Shown here: positions 3,764 to 12,271 of the stretch, piece by piece
Layout of the letters: the number at the start of each line of letters is the position of its first letter
Position numbering within the stretch: position 1 is the stretch's first letter
IMG/VR virus record: IMGVR_UViG_3300029288_000095
Span: 1-64,000 of that record
Reading direction: 5' to 3' (one strand)
Length of the DNA stretch: 64,000 bases
From: a virus
Lineage: Duplodnaviria > Caudoviricetes
Translations under genes and position numbers: made by a program
The notes under the pieces: generated by a model
Told to the model about the DNA's origin: nothing
Seen by the model: the letters and a program-made list of their open reading frames with translations, nothing else
Databases searched by the model: none

Positions 3764-6757
3764 ATGGACGAAATCATAAAAGTCTTTGCATCGGTTATTG
3801 ATTACCCACAGCAGAATTTACCTTCAGATGTGTGGAGCTACAATGAAAAATCAAAAGAATACGCGCTTAAACCAGAAGTCAAAGCAGAAATACTTTCTAG
3901 GATTGAACAGTTCTTTAAAGAAAAAGGTTTTAAGAATATTGAAAAGTTTTGGCTGGGTACTGTTATCGGTAGTAGCATTGGTAGCCTATTTTATACTACG
4001 TCCACAGATATAGACGTAAAGTCAATTATAGACGTTGCCGAATTTATGAAAGCCAATGATTATGATGTTGGCGATCAAATGTGGAACATGGTGAAGGAAG
4101 TCCGCAAGAGTGATGTGATGGCGGCAAGCAACCCGCTGAAGACGACCAATAATCGCCCGATAGATATTTATTTTATAAACATCGCGGATTTTTCTGAAGA
4201 CGGAATATCGGGTATCGCCGAAGATCATCTTAAAAAATACGATAGCCTTTACTTCGTAGAAGAGGATGTTTGGCTGAAAGAACCGCAACAGATCGCCGAT
4301 ATAGAAAAATACATAGACGAACGCGATAAAACCCTCCAAGAAGCCTATAAACGCGCCGATAAGATAGCCGAAGGTCTTGATATTGATATTGGTAAGGCTA
4401 ACCGCGTGGCGACCGATATAGAGGCGTTTGGCGACTATATAGCCACCCTTAAACCAGAACAGAAGGCAAAGCTGCGCGATAGGCTTCAAAAGAAGCTTGA
4501 CGAACTAGAAAAGATCATCCAAGATATGATTGACACGAAGAACGAAGTTCTTGAAGATCGCCAAAAGGCGTTTCAAGATTTGGATTTCACGCTTGATTAT
4601 GAACACATGATTACGAGTATAAATTTTCATCCCGATAACGTTAAGATGAAACTACTTGTTAAATGGGCTTATTTCAATATAATTTCAAAATTGCAAGATA
4701 TCGCGGAAGACCCAGTAACGGATGAAGTAGAAGTCAAAGAAGAAGACGTACCGGCTATCAAGGAAGTTGTTGCTAGTGGCGATGTTTATTTTAGGGGTGC
4801 ACCATCGGATGAAATATCGGCGCATGATTTTCCTGGGATGTGGTTAAGTAAAGACGAGGCTATTGCGGAACAATACGGCGACACTTATAAGTATACATTA
4901 GAAAACGCAAATCTTTTGAATACAGAAGAGCCAGAAGCGCGGGATATAGAAATAGAATTTGCGAAAAAGTATCCAGTACTAGAAGAAGAAATGAATCAAA
5001 CCGGAGAATGGACTGAACTATGGATGTTCCCGTGCGACGAATTAGTATCAATATTGAAGCAACGCGGTTATGACGGATATAACAATGGTTCAGATACATT
5101 TGTATTCAATCTTTTCAAAATAAAAAAAGCATCAAATAAAATAAACATAAATAGGTATGCTTCTGAAGTATTAAGTGATACGCCTACAGATGAGATGAAA
5201 GAACATTATGATAAACGAACTAAAAATCATATAGCGCTTGTCAAAAAATATTGCGAAAAACTTGTGCCTATATATGGTGATGAAATCATTCAGCGCGGTA
5301 AAGATCACGATAAAAGTAAATTTGAAGAACCAGAATATACTCCATATGTATTTACTACGTGGAGATATAAATGCAAAGATGATAATAAAGAATTCAAATG
5401 CTCTAAAGAAATGGAACAACGGATGAAAGATGCAACTGAGCATCACATAAAGAACAATCCACATCATCCTGAATTTCATACGGATAAATTAAATAATTTG
5501 ATTAACACGAAAGACCGCGATGCTATTCCAGATGAAATGATTGATTCTACTAAAATGACTGATCTTGATATAGCAGAAATGTGCGCTGATTGGTGTGCTA
5601 TGTCAGAAGAGCGCGGTAATAGCCCGATAGAATGGGCTGATAAAAACGTTAACAAGCGTTGGAAATTTGACGAAAAGCAATCAAAAAAAATATATGATTT
5701 GATAAATAAAATTTGGGAAAGTAAGAAGAAAATAAATATCCGCCGTGTTGCCGAACGGGGTAATCATACCGTGGGCGCAAGCCCAGCACATGATCCTATG
5801 GTCAGTAATGACAAAGTGGTTAATATTGGCGATGGCGGCGGATCAGTTATAGGTGAAACAAAAATTCTAACATTTGATGAAATAGAAAAGTCATCAAAGG
5901 CAATTGACCGAATACAGCCTATGCCGTGTATCTGGTACGAAAACGAAAGCGGCGAAAAGCGGTTCTTGTCAGAAAAGGAACTTGAAAACCCGTATGACAT
6001 AGAAACAAATATCCAAAAAGATTATCCGATCCAAGTGAGTCACTTTCCAGTTGTGACAGAAACGTTCGTGGATACAGATAGCGGCGGACATATGACTTTT
6101 GAAACATCTATAAACTGTATTCAAGATATAGTTTTATATCTTGTTCAAAATCGCGGATGGAAGTTAACTGATGCAATAGTCACGGCTTCTGGGATGTGTG
6201 AAAGATGTTTAAACGTCATTTCGGAACAAGCTGGCGGTGAAAAATATCCGCAAGAACAAAAAGATTCTTCGCACACGCATTGTGATTTATGCGCTGTTGT
6301 AGATCCAGAATACGATATCTGGTGGAATACTACGTGGCAAGAAGAACTTAAAAAGATACCAGAAGCGGAAATGGCAAAGCCTATAACTGCATCAGATAAA
6401 AAAGCCAATAATAGTATATATACACTATTTATAAAAGAAGCGGTTCAGCATTTTAGGAAGAAGCTTGCGGCGGATATTTCTGGGATTCAAGAATTAGAAA
6501 ATTGGGTAACTAATGCGATTGGTATGGAAGAAAAATACAAAAACATACTTTTGAAAATTGTACAACATATGAAAAACGCTACATCAAAAGATGATATGAA
6601 AGATGAAAAAAAATATTTCATGCAAAGATATCGTGAAATAAATTCGTATCCAGCTTCATATCCATTCCCAATTGCGGTTAAAAGAATATTGGATAAAATA
6701 CAATTCATTGATAAACAAGCGTCTAAAAAGATAAACATCCGCCGAATAGAAGGGTAA
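3764..6757 (+). CDS. Multi-domain (polyvalent) protein: Pol-beta nucleotidyltransferase + ADP-ribosyltransferase-like + DUF5662-like HD domain + Cys-rich domain
   Basis: GSS...Y..STDIDV (NTase); YFRG...GMWLS.D..IA.QYG (ART-like, about aa 338-455); H...V..Y...RG..HD.SKF...HH..NNPHHPE...EMCADW (HD/DUF5662, about aa 467-655). Confidence 0.7.
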   Translation: MDEIIKVFASVIDYPQQNLPSDVWSYNEKSKEYALKPEVKAEILSRIEQFFKEKGFKNIEKFWLGTVIGSSIGSLFYTTSTDIDVKSIIDVAEFMKANDYDVGDQMWNMVKEVRKSDVMAASNPLKTTNNRPIDIYFINIADFSEDGISGIAEDHLKKYDSLYFVEEDVWLKEPQQIADIEKYIDERDKTLQEAYKRADKIAEGLDIDIGKANRVATDIEAFGDYIATLKPEQKAKLRDRLQKKLDELEKIIQDMIDTKNEVLEDRQKAFQDLDFTLDYEHMITSINFHPDNVKMKLLVKWAYFNIISKLQDIAEDPVTDEVEVKEEDVPAIKEVVASGDVYFRGAPSDEISAHDFPGMWLSKDEAIAEQYGDTYKYTLENANLLNTEEPEARDIEIEFAKKYPVLEEEMNQTGEWTELWMFPCDELVSILKQRGYDGYNNGSDTFVFNLFKIKKASNKININRYASEVLSDTPTDEMKEHYDKRTKNHIALVKKYCEKLVPIYGDEIIQRGKDHDKSKFEEPEYTPYVFTTWRYKCKDDNKEFKCSKEMEQRMKDATEHHIKNNPHHPEFHTDKLNNLINTKDRDAIPDEMIDSTKMTDLDIAEMCADWCAMSEERGNSPIEWADKNVNKRWKFDEKQSKKIYDLINKIWESKKKINIRRVAERGNHTVGASPAHDPMVSNDKVVNIGDGGGSVIGETKILTFDEIEKSSKAIDRIQPMPCIWYENESGEKRFLSEKELENPYDIETNIQKDYPIQVSHFPVVTETFVDTDSGGHMTFETSINCIQDIVLYLVQNRGWKLTDAIVTASGMCERCLNVISEQAGGEKYPQEQKDSSHTHCDLCAVVDPEYDIWWNTTWQEELKKIPEAEMAKPITASDKKANNSIYTLFIKEAVQHFRKKLAADISGIQELENWVTNAIGMEEKYKNILLKIVQHMKNATSKDDMKDEKKYFMQRYREINSYPASYPFPIAVKRILDKIQFIDKQASKKINIRRIEG

Positions 6758-8669: not shown

Positions 8670-8839
8670 CACCACCACCACGAAAAGAAAAAAGATTGGA
8701 AAGTTTTGGCGGTTATTATTGGATCGCTTGCCGCGCTTATTTCTGCGGCAACACCCATCACGCTTAAAATTCTTGACACCGTAGAAAAAGTAAATATGAT
8801 CAAATACGGTTTCATCAAGCCAGCTAAAAAATAGCGCTA

Positions 8840-8868
8840 TTGACATTTGATTGTCTTTCAAGTATATT
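8840..8868 (+). promoter_or_regulatory. sigma70-like promoter of the tRNA/ncRNA cluster
   Basis: TTGACA-N17-TATATT. Confidence 0.75.
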
Positions 8869-8921: not shown

Positions 8922-9010
8922 GGCGGTACTGGAAAAAGGTGGCTCCCGTTTTTGATACACGTCTAAACGGACATTACATCACCACGGCGGTTAAACTCCG
9001 CCTACCGCCG
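8922..9010 (+). ncRNA. tRNA-like RNA lacking a D stem and canonical anticodon arm
   Basis: Acceptor GGCGGTA/TACCGCC; T arm GGCGG-TTAAACT-CCGCC; internal helices GGTG/CACC and CCGTTT/AAACGG. Confidence 0.6.
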
Positions 9011-9020
9011 TCTTTTATAA

Positions 9021-9095
9021 CCGGATGTAGCTCAATTGGCTTAGAGTACTCGCCCTGGGAGCGAGGGGTTGCGCGTTCGAGCCGCGCCTTCCGGA
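9021..9095 (+). tRNA. tRNA-Pro(UGG), no encoded CCA
   Basis: Cloverleaf; anticodon arm CTCGC-CCTGGGA-GCGAG; T arm GCGCG-TTCGAGC-CGCGC. Confidence 0.85.
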
Positions 9096-9103
9096 GGTAT
9101 TAT

Positions 9104-9177
9104 GGGCAGATGGTGAAATTGGCAACACTGCGGGTTTTGGTCCCGCCATTTTGCAGGTTCGAGTCCTGTTCTGCTCA
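9104..9177 (+). tRNA. tRNA-Gln(UUG), no encoded CCA
   Basis: Acceptor GGGCAGA/TCTGCTC; anticodon arm GCGGG-TTTTGGT-CCCGC; TTCGAGT T loop. Confidence 0.85.
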
Positions 9178-9180
9178 CAT

Positions 9181-9301
9181 GGGGCTGTAAAGTTTCGATT
9201 ATGGGATTGACACGGGCGACCGTGATAGCGCCAAGAAATGCCTATGAAAAATAGTGCGCGAATAATTCACATAACACGCGGCTTCGCCGCCGCCAGCTCC
9301 A
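9181..9301 (+). ncRNA. ssrA: Minimal tmRNA (tRNA-like domain + pk1 + very short tag frame)
   Basis: 5' GGGGCTG...TTCGA and 3' ...GCGGCTTCGCCGCCGCCAGCTCCA resemble tmRNA termini; G3.U70 and A73; P2 TTATG/CATAA; H-type pseudoknot CACG/CGTG + GGCG/CGCC; GCC TAT GAA AAA TAG. Confidence 0.75.
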
Positions 9302-9305
9302 CATC

Positions 9306-9378
9306 GCCAACGTAGCTCAGTCGGTAGAGCGTCAGTTTTGTAAACTGAAAGTCGCGGGTTCAATCCCTGTCGTTGGCT
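9306..9378 (+). tRNA. tRNA-Thr(UGU), no encoded CCA
   Basis: GCCAACG/CGTTGGC acceptor; TCAGT-TTTGTAA-ACTGA anticodon arm. Confidence 0.92.
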
Positions 9379-9381
9379 TTT

Positions 9382-9453
9382 GCGGGAATAGATCAATGGT
9401 AGATCTTTTGATTTCCAATCAAAGTGTTATCGGTTCAAGTCCGATTTCCCGCT
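9382..9453 (+). tRNA. tRNA-Gly(UCC), no complete encoded CCA
   Basis: GCGGGAA/TTCCCGC acceptor; TTTGA-TTTCCAA-TCAAA anticodon arm. Confidence 0.92.
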
Positions 9454-9515
9454 CATAAAATAATTAAGGAGCGCACATATGCTGTAGGTAACTTTATTAT
9501 AAAGGAGCCACAACT

Positions 9516-9848
9516 ATGTCACGAAGCTTCAGAAAAGTTCCAGGCTGGAACATGGTTAAACCCAAAAGAAGGAACGGCGGTAATCACGTAAACAAGAAAA
9601 TACGTAGATTATCTATTGACTACGATCTTCCAGATGGGATGTATTTTAAAAAACTTAGCCATGAATTTCATCCATATGATGATGAATGCGTTCGCCTTGG
9701 TATATATTTCAGCCGCCAAGAGTGCGAAAGAAATGAAGAATGGTGCGAAAATGTTCATAACCATACTTGGTGGGGTAGATGGTTTACGATCACCAAGCCG
9801 TACAAGCGCACACCGATTTATAAATATTACATGAAACGAAGCAAATAA
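9516..9848 (+). CDS. Basic hypothetical protein (MSRSxRK N-terminus)
   Basis: Strong SD AAAGGAG; Arg/Lys-rich 110-aa ORF right after the tRNA cluster. Confidence 0.6.
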   Translation: MSRSFRKVPGWNMVKPKRRNGGNHVNKKIRRLSIDYDLPDGMYFKKLSHEFHPYDDECVRLGIYFSRQECERNEEWCENVHNHTWWGRWFTITKPYKRTPIYKYYMKRSK

Positions 9849-9855
9849 AAAGCAC

Positions 9856-9883
9856 TTGACAAAAAACTAATTTGATGTACAAT
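9856..9883 (+). promoter_or_regulatory. sigma70-like promoter
   Basis: TTGACA-N16-TACAAT. Confidence 0.75.
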
Positions 9884-9913
9884 CAAACGAGTAAGTTTCA
9901 ATAGGAGTGTCAT

Positions 9914-11278
9914 ATGGACACGCTTGAAAAAGCCCGTTTGTTATTGCAAGAAATACAAAAGTTCGGCGGTGAATCTTATATAGTCGGCGGTGCTGTAAGG
10001 GATTCCGTTTTAGGTATAACACCACACGATGTAGATATAGCCACGAACGTTCCAATGCATGTTCTTGAAAACAATTTTCCAACCTATGATCTTGGTAAAA
10101 ATAAATCGTTTGGTGTTATAGGAATAAAGTATCTTGATGAGACATTTGAAGTGGCTCAGTTTAGAACAGAATCAGATTATTCCGATGGACGCCATCCGGA
10201 CAAAGTATTATTTACAAATACGTTACAAGAAGACGTGTCTAGGCGCGATTTCACAATCAATGCTCTAGCTGCGGATATGTTTGGAGAAATAATAGATCAT
10301 GTCGGAGGATTGAATGATATAAGAAGCCGTATAATAAGAACAGTAGGAAATCCAAGTCTGCGTTTTAACGAAGACCATTTACGTATGATACGCGCCGTTA
10401 GATTTGCTACGCGATTCAATTTTGTATTAGAATTTGATACAATGCAAGCTATAAGGGCTAATGCAAATAAAATATTGAGCGTATCGCCAGAACGTATATG
10501 GCAAGAAGTATGGAAAGCCGCTTCATATGGGAAATCATTTGCTAATTTTATAACACTACTCGATACCGTAGATTTGCTTCGGTATATATTTCCAGACATA
10601 TATATTATGAAGCATGGACGATTTCCGCATGCGGCAATACATCATCCCGAGGGCGACACATATTCGCATACAATGAAGTGCATAGAATATCGTAACAGTT
10701 TTTCACCGCTTAGAAATATCATACTATTGTTCCATGACGTAGGCAAAATAAAAACGTATGTATACGAAGATGGGAAGCATACTTATCATGGGCATGAATC
10801 CGCTGGGCTTCCAATAATAGACAACGTATGTGATCAATATAGGGTGGATAATGAAACCCGCGAATGTATGAAATTCTGTACACAAGAGCATATGATATTC
10901 AAACAGCTACCAAAGATACGATCTTCAAAAGCTTTTGAATTATATCAAAACAAGTTTTTCAATATATTGAAAGAAATATGCGAAGCTGACGATCTATGCC
11001 GTGGTTTAGAAAATAGCATAGCAGAATGGTATGAACTTGAAAAATTTATAGAAGGGCTTGACGTAAAATACAAATCTCACACTTTCAAAAAAGCGTTTCA
11101 CGAAATAATAAATGGCGGTGTCGTCATGAATATGAGGGGCATACCACCGGGTCCGCAAATAGGTAACGTTATAAACAATACTTTCCAGTGGATACTAGAC
11201 AACAATATACCACTTTCGGATGTAGAAAAAATACTTGGTTATGCCGCATCAGCACCACTTGACAAAAAAATGGTTTAG
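9914..11278 (+). CDS. cca: CCA tRNA nucleotidyltransferase with HD domain
   Basis: VGGAVRD, DVDIAT, RRDFTINA, EDHLRMIRAVRF motifs; HPEG..H...HDVGK HD domain. Confidence 0.92.
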   Translation: MDTLEKARLLLQEIQKFGGESYIVGGAVRDSVLGITPHDVDIATNVPMHVLENNFPTYDLGKNKSFGVIGIKYLDETFEVAQFRTESDYSDGRHPDKVLFTNTLQEDVSRRDFTINALAADMFGEIIDHVGGLNDIRSRIIRTVGNPSLRFNEDHLRMIRAVRFATRFNFVLEFDTMQAIRANANKILSVSPERIWQEVWKAASYGKSFANFITLLDTVDLLRYIFPDIYIMKHGRFPHAAIHHPEGDTYSHTMKCIEYRNSFSPLRNIILLFHDVGKIKTYVYEDGKHTYHGHESAGLPIIDNVCDQYRVDNETRECMKFCTQEHMIFKQLPKIRSSKAFELYQNKFFNILKEICEADDLCRGLENSIAEWYELEKFIEGLDVKYKSHTFKKAFHEIINGGVVMNMRGIPPGPQIGNVINNTFQWILDNNIPLSDVEKILGYAASAPLDKKMV

Positions 11279-11314: not shown

Positions 11315-12271
11315 GTGGACTTTAATAAAATAGCCGAAAAGAATTGCATCCTAAAGGCTACTGTCGGGTCAAAGCTTTACGGAACTAATTCTGAAAATTC
11401 TGATAACGATTATGTCGGCATATTCATGCCAGATGAAAACATGGTATATGGACTATATAAATGCGAACAAGTTGAAATTAAAACGAACGCATCGTCAAGC
11501 GGCGTAAAAAACAACGCCGGCGATACGGACTATACTTGCTATGAATTCCGTAAGTTCATCCATCTTTGCCAGAAGGCAACGCCGAATATCCTTGAAATAC
11601 TTTTTGTGCCAGATCAATTGAAACTAATGGTTGGAAATTTTGGATATTTTGAATGGATTGTTAAACATAGAAATATGTTCATCACCAAAAGAATATTTGA
11701 TACATTCATGGAGTACGCAATCGCGCAAGAGCGGCTTCTGAAAACTAAGACAATCAGATATAAGGCGCTGCTTGAAATGTACGCCTATCTGCAAGACGTT
11801 TATCCGGCAGACGTGGAAAATCCACTTGGAATTGATCGGCAGAAGAAACTTATCGAAATCTATCCAGATTTCAGAAACAAAAAAGGCGATATCAAGCAGT
11901 TCAACGAAACCATGCCGTTCAAGTACGTCTTTGAAAACATCAAGCGCGAAGTGGAAGGCTACGGATATCGTAAAGAAAATATCTTGAAACACAATTTTGA
12001 AATTAAATATGCTAGCCATATGGCGCGACTTCTTATGGAAGGTATAGAACTTACCGAAACTGGGATGATCAGCTATCCATTAGCGAATGCGGAGGTTATA
12101 AAAGCCATAAAGTACGGCGAAGTGAATGAAAGTGATTTCTACGGAATCGTTGAAACTTTGAAAAAACGTTTCCGCGAAGTTGAATCAAAATCAAATCTTC
12201 CCGCGCATCCAGACATGGACGACGTAAATAAGTTTCAGATTGAAATGATAAAAGACTTTTTAGGAGAATAA
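11315..12271 (+). CDS. Nucleotidyltransferase (Pol-beta superfamily, Nuc-transf/RlaP-like)
   Basis: GSKLYGTN..NSDNDYVGIF; PNILE; KYASH..RLL. Confidence 0.85.
   Translation: MDFNKIAEKNCILKATVGSKLYGTNSENSDNDYVGIFMPDENMVYGLYKCEQVEIKTNASSSGVKNNAGDTDYTCYEFRKFIHLCQKATPNILEILFVPDQLKLMVGNFGYFEWIVKHRNMFITKRIFDTFMEYAIAQERLLKTKTIRYKALLEMYAYLQDVYPADVENPLGIDRQKKLIEIYPDFRNKKGDIKQFNETMPFKYVFENIKREVEGYGYRKENILKHNFEIKYASHMARLLMEGIELTETGMISYPLANAEVIKAIKYGEVNESDFYGIVETLKKRFREVESKSNLPAHPDMDDVNKFQIEMIKDFLGE

Follow-up and report, generated by a model that had tools for sequence, protein, structure and literature searches.

The 121-nt element at positions 9181-9301 (+ strand) of the DNA studied here is probably a divergent miniature form of tmRNA, the ribosome-rescue RNA of bacteria, i.e., a tRNA-like domain (TLD) with an 11-bp P2 helix, closed by ~50 nt folded into two hairpins, which would act without a tag as an alanyl, SmpB-binding competitor of the host tmRNA. 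This reading starts from the layout of the element, its non-randomness, its position in a tRNA array and its likeness to the class of phage RNAs that contains the RNA of mycobacteriophage DS6A. Judging from its bases and predicted folds, the element is real and gene-like, and it is most likely a divergent form of that known, under-described class of TLD-only phage RNAs. The DNA analysed (the window) covers the first 64 kb of an IMG/VR virus record of 115.7 kb, whose completeness was estimated by CheckV at 62%. A preliminary description had taken the element for a strongly reduced, phage-borne relative of tmRNA with an alanine-type TLD, and its layout, the rarity of this layout among shuffled sequences and the existence of the DS6A-type class bear this out. 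The high novelty claimed at that time has to be withdrawn, because TLD-only phage tmRNAs have been published and dozens more are present in IMG/VR.

Location in a phage tRNA array

The element fills a 127-nt gap between tRNA-Gln and tRNA-Thr, leaving spacers of 2 and 4 nt. The array reads Pro-Gln-X-Thr-Gly on the + strand, where X is the 121-nt element and the four tRNAs were identified by both ARAGORN and Rfam. The features of this region are as follows.

8773-8800, + strand: putative sigma-70-like promoter TTGACA-16-TATGAT, 11/12 consensus matches, upstream of the RNA cluster
8840-8868, + strand: putative sigma-70-like promoter TTGACA-17-TATATT, 11/12 consensus matches, upstream of the RNA cluster
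8922-9010, + strand: non-canonical tRNA-like RNA, first in the cluster, fold z-score -3.34
9021-9095, + strand: tRNA-Pro(UGG) (ARAGORN, Rfam)
9104-9178, + strand: tRNA-Gln(UUG) (ARAGORN, Rfam)
9181-9301, + strand: mini-tmRNA-like gene, 121 nt, ending at discriminator A73
9306-9378, + strand: tRNA-Thr(UGU) (ARAGORN, Rfam)
9382-9454, + strand: tRNA-Gly(UCC) (ARAGORN, Rfam)
9914-11278, + strand: phage CCA-adding enzyme (PolyA_pol head and RNA-binding domain), downstream of the array
11315-12271, + strand: RlaP-family nucleotidyltransferase (RNA repair pathway family), downstream of the CCA-adding enzyme

An encoded CCA end is absent from every RNA of the cluster, the 121-nt element included, and no SmpB gene was found in the 115.7-kb record. 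The first RNA of the cluster (8922-9010) has C3:G70 in its 7-bp acceptor, and G is its discriminator base. Its T arm is canonical, with the loop TTAAACT, and it also forms a long hairpin that is interrupted. It matched no Rfam family, the tRNA family included, and was not called by ARAGORN at default settings; at reduced stringency ARAGORN reported it as tRNA-Ile(GAT) with a 6-nt "intron".

DUF5662 was found in a 997-aa protein encoded upstream of the array (window positions 3764-6757). In P0025 (778 aa), a relative of the CCA-adding enzyme of the window, a CCA enzyme and DUF5662 are fused, and a DUF5662 gene is also present nearby in the metagenome contig L078, which is described below. These hints are consistent with a functional link that DUF5662 may have to tRNA 3'-end metabolism.

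Structure of the 121-nt element

The element can be divided into the following parts.

9181-9187, + strand: acceptor 5' strand GGGGCTG, pairing with 9294-9300; G3:U70 is 9183:9298
9188-9198, + strand: D-loop analogue TAAAGTTTCGA, unpaired, with the tmRNA-TLD motif (aligned to the TLD consensus)
9199-9209, + strand: P2 5' strand, pairing with 9263-9274 (11 bp, A9269 bulged)
9211-9224, + strand: hairpin of 5 bp with a GCGA (GNRA) tetraloop (MFE and centroid folds)
9240-9257, + strand: hairpin GCCTAT / ATAG-T-GC with loop GAAAA, enclosing the whole putative frame 9240-9254
9263-9277, + strand: P2 3' strand (9263-9274), then CAC linker (9275-9277)
9278-9293, + strand: T arm with a 5-bp stem GCGGC/GCCGC (9278-9282/9289-9293) and a 6-nt loop TTCGCC
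9294-9301, + strand: acceptor 3' strand CAGCTCC (9294-9300) and discriminator A (9301)

Every base quoted in the preliminary description was found at its position. The alanine acceptor proposed there can be read directly (GGGGCTG/CAGCTCC with G3:U70, all 7 bp paired, and A at 9301), the D stem is indeed missing, and the T loop is the atypical one of 6 nt, closed by GCGGC/GCCGC. The P2 helix had been drawn as TTATG/CATAA; these bases do pair (9199-9203/9270-9274), but the helix extends to 11 bp with a bulged A and is not one of 5 bp.

The linker motif GUUUCGA is unpaired and is directly followed by P2. The resulting linker-P2-NAC layout, AAAGTTTCGA-T...A-CAC in the element, corresponds to the family form (G)GNUUCGA(C/U). 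This TLD core, defined as TTCGA correctly spaced from the acceptor, with P2 following in register and ending 3 nt before the T stem, arose in 3 of 20,000 dinucleotide shuffles. Forcing the acceptor, P2 and T arm to form gave -37.8 kcal/mol versus -38.3 kcal/mol for the unconstrained MFE, a cost of 0.5 kcal/mol, and the MFE z-score of the element is only -1.29. Because the G+C content of the element (52%) and of its interior (51%) exceeds that of the window (37.5%), the composition suggests that the element keeps a maintained structure rather than drifting. The T loop departs from the 7-nt consensus UUCGANU: TTCGCC is one base short and has C at the position of A58. A loop of this length without A58 may be unable to adopt the canonical T-loop fold.

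Miniature tmRNAs in uncultivated phages

IMG/VR was scanned for TLD ends placed close together. After removal of artefacts, ~45 distinct RNAs of 79-137 nt were obtained from phage contigs (L016, L017, L028-L071, L082, and L087-L092, less the exclusions given here). Matches spanning adjacent tRNAs (L011, L049, L061, L062, L083-L086, and L093) and matches that were the 3'-terminal part of a full tmRNA call (L027, L032, L063, and L081) were excluded. The members have in common an acceptor with G3:U70 and A73, the linker GA(A/U)GGNUUCGA(C/U), a self-closed P2, a GAC/CAC linker and a T arm. The search patterns themselves imposed several of these features, among them G3:U70 and the canonical 7-nt T loop. 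In an alignment of 46 distinct sequences, which was fitted to the model and in which the G3:U70 pair was likewise imposed by the patterns, 96% of the cells were paired and 17 of 22 pairs showed changes on both sides; neither shuffles nor slid registers came near this pairing support.

RF00023 scored above its gathering cut-off in seven of the 10 mini loci tested, while ARAGORN made no stand-alone tmRNA call among the class loci. The overlapping ARAGORN calls were three tmRNAs of 343 nt (L027, L032, and L063), one of 367 nt (L081) and one tRNA-Pyl (L065). In the three 343-nt cases an 82-nt mini match (L027, 3234-3315; L032, 4103-4184; L063, 5751-5832) is the 3' end of the ARAGORN tmRNA, so that a single T arm and acceptor 3' strand can pair with either of two 5' halves, which might reflect a duplication or the scar of an integration.

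Some of the mini-tmRNAs lie inside tRNA arrays (e.g., L058, L065, and L035), as the 121-nt element does. In the group of 80 nt, to which the DS6A RNA belongs, an inner hairpin CCSC-AYG-NSGG is conserved after a GAAA-type internal loop. The closest single sequence to the element is L040 (105 nt), which has in common with it the 5' portion GTAAAG(G)TTTCGATTATG, the 3' portion CATAA-NAC and the P2 base TTATG/CATAA. The single-G linker of the element is also present in the phage RNA L028. Every other member has a T loop of 7 nt, as required by the search patterns, versus 6 nt in the element.

ARAGORN and RF00023 had been proposed as checks in the preliminary description, and neither of them calls a tmRNA at 9181-9301. 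ARAGORN gave no tmRNA call on the element at default settings or at -ps80, and RF00023 (gathering cut-off, 47 bits) had no match at E<=10 at the element or across the 115.7-kb record. The mitochondrial tmRNA family RF02544 did not match the element either. A tRNA identity was equally absent: RF00005 had no match at E<=10 on 9179-9304, and no tRNA was called by ARAGORN.

A covariance model (R1) built from 18 DS6A-type mini-tmRNA sequences aligned the element from end to end with 40.4 bits (E = 7e-9 for 801 nt, and 1e-6 for the whole record). This is the lowest R1 score among the genuine mini-tmRNA members, and in a control, genuine tRNA-Ala genes reached 29-44 bits with R1; most of the score is therefore owed to the alanine acceptor and the T arm. 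What separates the element from tRNA-Ala is the lack of a cloverleaf, the presence of the TLD core and the AC of the NAC linker. A truncated alignment of 9181-9233 (11 bits), obtained by cmsearch with filters off, was discarded as a technical artefact, as the default pipeline aligns the full length. A core-only model (R2), consisting of the linker, P2 and the inner hairpin of the 80-nt family, missed the element and most of the genuine mid-size members alike; because of the latter its result is uninformative.

Close relatives of the element itself were sought in several ways. Exact-pattern scans of viral contigs (two) and metagenome contigs (two) matched only the contig of L040, blastn against 50,697 phage records gave matches limited to the flanking tRNAs, and blastn-short detected no likeness of the interior to any mini-tmRNA fetched. 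In a search guided by the CCA-adding enzyme, the best relative was 47% identical, and the neighbouring DNA of five related contigs contained no mini-tmRNA.

The 175-kb NCBI metagenome contig L078 encodes a CCA enzyme 41% identical to that of the window, in the order DUF5662 ... CCA enzyme ... RlaP. At ~9740-9975 of this contig, an AU-rich RNA of ~190 nt lies behind a consensus promoter (TTGACA, TATATT) and immediately before the CCA-adding enzyme. The ends of this RNA form a 7-bp acceptor (GGCTAGG / TCTAGCC) with a discriminator G and a canonical T arm, and its hairpin CTATAT-GAAAA-TATAG is reminiscent of CTAT-GAAAA-ATAG in the window element.

Alternative explanations

Two alternatives keep real weight because of the broken T loop. 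The first is that the element is a stable tRNA-like RNA with another role, like species 1 and 2 of phage T4, which would serve jointly with RNA 8922-9010 as a decoy or substrate of tRNA-directed enzymes. Host anticodon nucleases and other tRNA-targeting defences, RNase P, the adjacent CCA-adding and repair enzymes, and AlaRS are the candidates. Two non-canonical tRNA-like RNAs do occur in one array here, with the CCA-adding enzyme and RlaP encoded downstream, and in a distant syntenic relative (L078) the CCA enzyme is immediately preceded by the RNA of ~190 nt with tRNA-like ends; the stable RNAs kept in the tRNA cluster of T4 are the classic precedent. The TLD-specific UUCGA, P2 and NAC layout nevertheless points to tmRNA ancestry, the sequence does not resemble T4 rnaC or rnaD, and no defence target was identified. 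We regard this role as unlikely.

The second is that the element is a decaying relic, i.e., a former mini-tmRNA or a tmRNA fragment that no longer works, which we consider unlikely to a slightly greater degree. The 6-nt T loop without A58, the lowest R1 score among the members, the lack of an RF00023 match, the weak fold z-score and the orphan status of the element would all fit decay. They have to be set against an acceptor in which all 7 bp are sound, with G3:U70 and A73 kept, an intact P2 of 11 bp, an interior of 51% G+C in a genome of 37.5%, and the exact spacing between the flanking tRNAs.

The preliminary description had gone further and proposed a complete minimal tmRNA, with the architecture TLD plus pk1 plus a four-codon tag AYEK. 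In the form considered here, translation would resume at GCC 9240, or at the in-frame GCG 9228, and stop at UAG 9252-9254, adding the non-degron tag (A)AYEK or (A)APRNAYEK and freeing the ribosome without marking the protein for proteolysis. The frame GCC TAT GAA AAA TAG is indeed present at 9240-9254, with its stop in the CTAT/ATAG hairpin and an A-rich stretch ahead of the Ala codon, but as a tag signal it is no better than chance. A GCN-started frame of 2-10 codons occurred in 82% of dinucleotide shuffles of the 53-nt interior, and one preceded by an A-rich stretch in 25%; the real interior itself contains four such alternative frames. The sequence AUAGC-GCC (9225-9232) bears a loose likeness to AUAGUC-GCA, the resume context of E. 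coli, which may speak in favour of a minimal tmRNA. A motif census of the mid-size mini-tmRNAs found nothing consistent that resembles this context. Tags of two residues have been reported in some bacteria (PMC11915505), which makes a short tag conceivable. The whole putative frame, resume codon included, nevertheless folds within a hairpin and its peptide ends in Glu-Lys, so the element has neither a degron-type end nor a single-stranded resume codon. The string "AYEK*" was returned by ARAGORN at -ps60 only in nonsensical permuted-tmRNA calls spanning the neighbouring tRNAs, and these were rejected.

The pk1 pseudoknot fared no better, its bases being occupied by the 5-bp GCGA-capped hairpin in both the MFE and centroid folds. 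In H-type pseudoknots, zero nucleotides between the two 5' strands is unfavourable by the usual geometry, and the first loop of the proposed pk1 would have 0 nt, with the GNRA hairpin competing. A ring of PK2-PK4 is excluded, because 121 nt leaves no room for it. With such poor pseudoknot sterics and a chance-level frame inside a hairpin, the proposed architecture was not upheld.

No homologue with a conserved frame emerged from the searches described above. In the 103-nt mini-tmRNAs L039, L046, and L047, an apparent stop UAG is replaced by UGG, and its pairing partner has changed in compensation; the apparent frame GCU AAA UAG of L039 thus reads GCU AAA UGG GAG UAG in L046 (UAGGA/UCCUA versus UGGGA/UUCCA). 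Because the change is compensated in the pairing strand, this interior evolves as a helix and not as a message, which argues against coding. We therefore find a complete minimal tmRNA improbable. A broader form of it, in which the element would be the smallest complete tmRNA with a short non-degron tag and RNA 8922-9010, with its C3:G70, a second, non-alanine member of the toolkit, is a shade more improbable again. As a separate observation, open frames of 19-23 codons are present in L088/L094 (136 nt) and L089 (137 nt), one of them ending UAA UAA, and these could be real templates for short tags.

That the element is a tRNA-Ala gene split by an intron or insertion is very hard to credit: it has a T arm and an alanine-type acceptor, which U8 A9 follow, but a D stem and an anticodon arm cannot be drawn, RF00005 did not match at E<=10, ARAGORN made no call with introns allowed and at reduced stringency, and an insert of ~45 nt is far below the size of a group I intron.

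Proposed mode of action and significance

As a miniature tmRNA, the element would be transcribed from the promoters at ~8773-8868 as one unit with the phage tRNAs and excised by tRNA-processing enzymes, and CCA would be added by the phage or host CCA-adding enzyme. Host AlaRS could then charge it through G3:U70 and A73. The charged RNA would compete with host tmRNA for host SmpB, perhaps also for stalled ribosomes, and host trans-translation and tagging would thus be damped during infection. All of these biochemical steps are inferred by analogy with published work on tmRNA and on DS6A-like TLD RNA. Engagement of SmpB and the ribosome is less certain than alanylation, because the T loop is broken.

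The literature has very little on phage mini-tmRNAs, namely the DS6A RNA and nine sequences listed as "Standard, no CDS" in the 2025 tmRNA database (PMC11915505). They are common in uncultivated phages and are overlooked by standard annotation, and their frequency suggests that phages often interfere with ribosome rescue in their hosts. What the 121-nt element adds is a divergent mid-size form and a place in a tRNA array near a CCA-adding enzyme. Since its tag and pseudoknot are unsupported and relatives are absent, the element opens no new question by itself; its broken T-loop consensus would help to define the minimal RNA needs of AlaRS, SmpB, and the ribosome.

Comparison with known systems

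The T4 RNAs rnaC and rnaD (species 1 and 2; NC_000866, 70908-71171) are stable RNAs of 119-139 nt that are not tRNAs yet lie, like the element, inside the tRNA array of a phage; rnaC has a tRNA-like T arm. They lack the alanine acceptor, the TLD motif and any detectable sequence likeness, and the resemblance to the 121-nt element is one of placement only.

Mitochondrial tmRNAs without a tag frame have been described in jakobids and oomycetes (Jacob et al., 2004; Hafez et al., 2013; both cited in PMC11915505). The mitochondrial tmRNAs of RF02544 resemble the 121-nt element in being reduced, in keeping the alanyl TLD and in having lost the message. Unlike the element, they are organellar and mostly permuted, and a dedicated SmpB co-occurs with them.

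With canonical SsrA (RF00023) the element has the TLD in common, namely the acceptor GGGGCUG...CAGCUCCA with G3:U70 and A73, the UUCGA linker and the outgoing P2. It differs in being one third as long, in lacking PK1-PK4 and in having no supported resume site, tag or degron.

The mid-size phage mini-tmRNAs of 111-137 nt (e.g., L082 and L087-L092) and L040 are built on the same plan as the element, in which a TLD and P2 carry a structured insert that varies. The interior of the element bears no relation to theirs, and its T loop differs from the canonical 7-nt loop found in all of them, which the search patterns required.

The DS6A RNA is the best-described counterpart. It is presented as a "TLD only" tmRNA in two reports (PMC4131195, Hudson et al., 2014; PMC11915505), and we located its gene at JN698994 28478-28560, where it aligns within the 80-nt family. 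The element differs from it in size (121 nt versus ~80 nt for the DS6A type), in the replacement of the inner hairpin of the 80-nt family by ~50 nt with two other hairpins, in its 6-nt T loop without A58 and in its location inside a tRNA array; RF00023 gives the DS6A RNA 43 bits versus nothing for the element. Both are phage-borne and have G3:U70 and A73, a UUCGA-type linker, a self-closed P2, NAC and the T arm. Neither has a pseudoknot ring or a demonstrable tag, and for both the expected action, by analogy, would be competition for SmpB. According to these reports (PMC4131195; PMC11915505; citing Mao et al., 2009), a DS6A-like molecule has a strong inhibitory effect on tmRNA in E. coli, which may come from titration of SmpB. 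The SmpB decoy that the preliminary description had offered as its alternative agrees with this published behaviour of TLD-only RNA of the DS6A type, and it may well apply to the 121-nt element.
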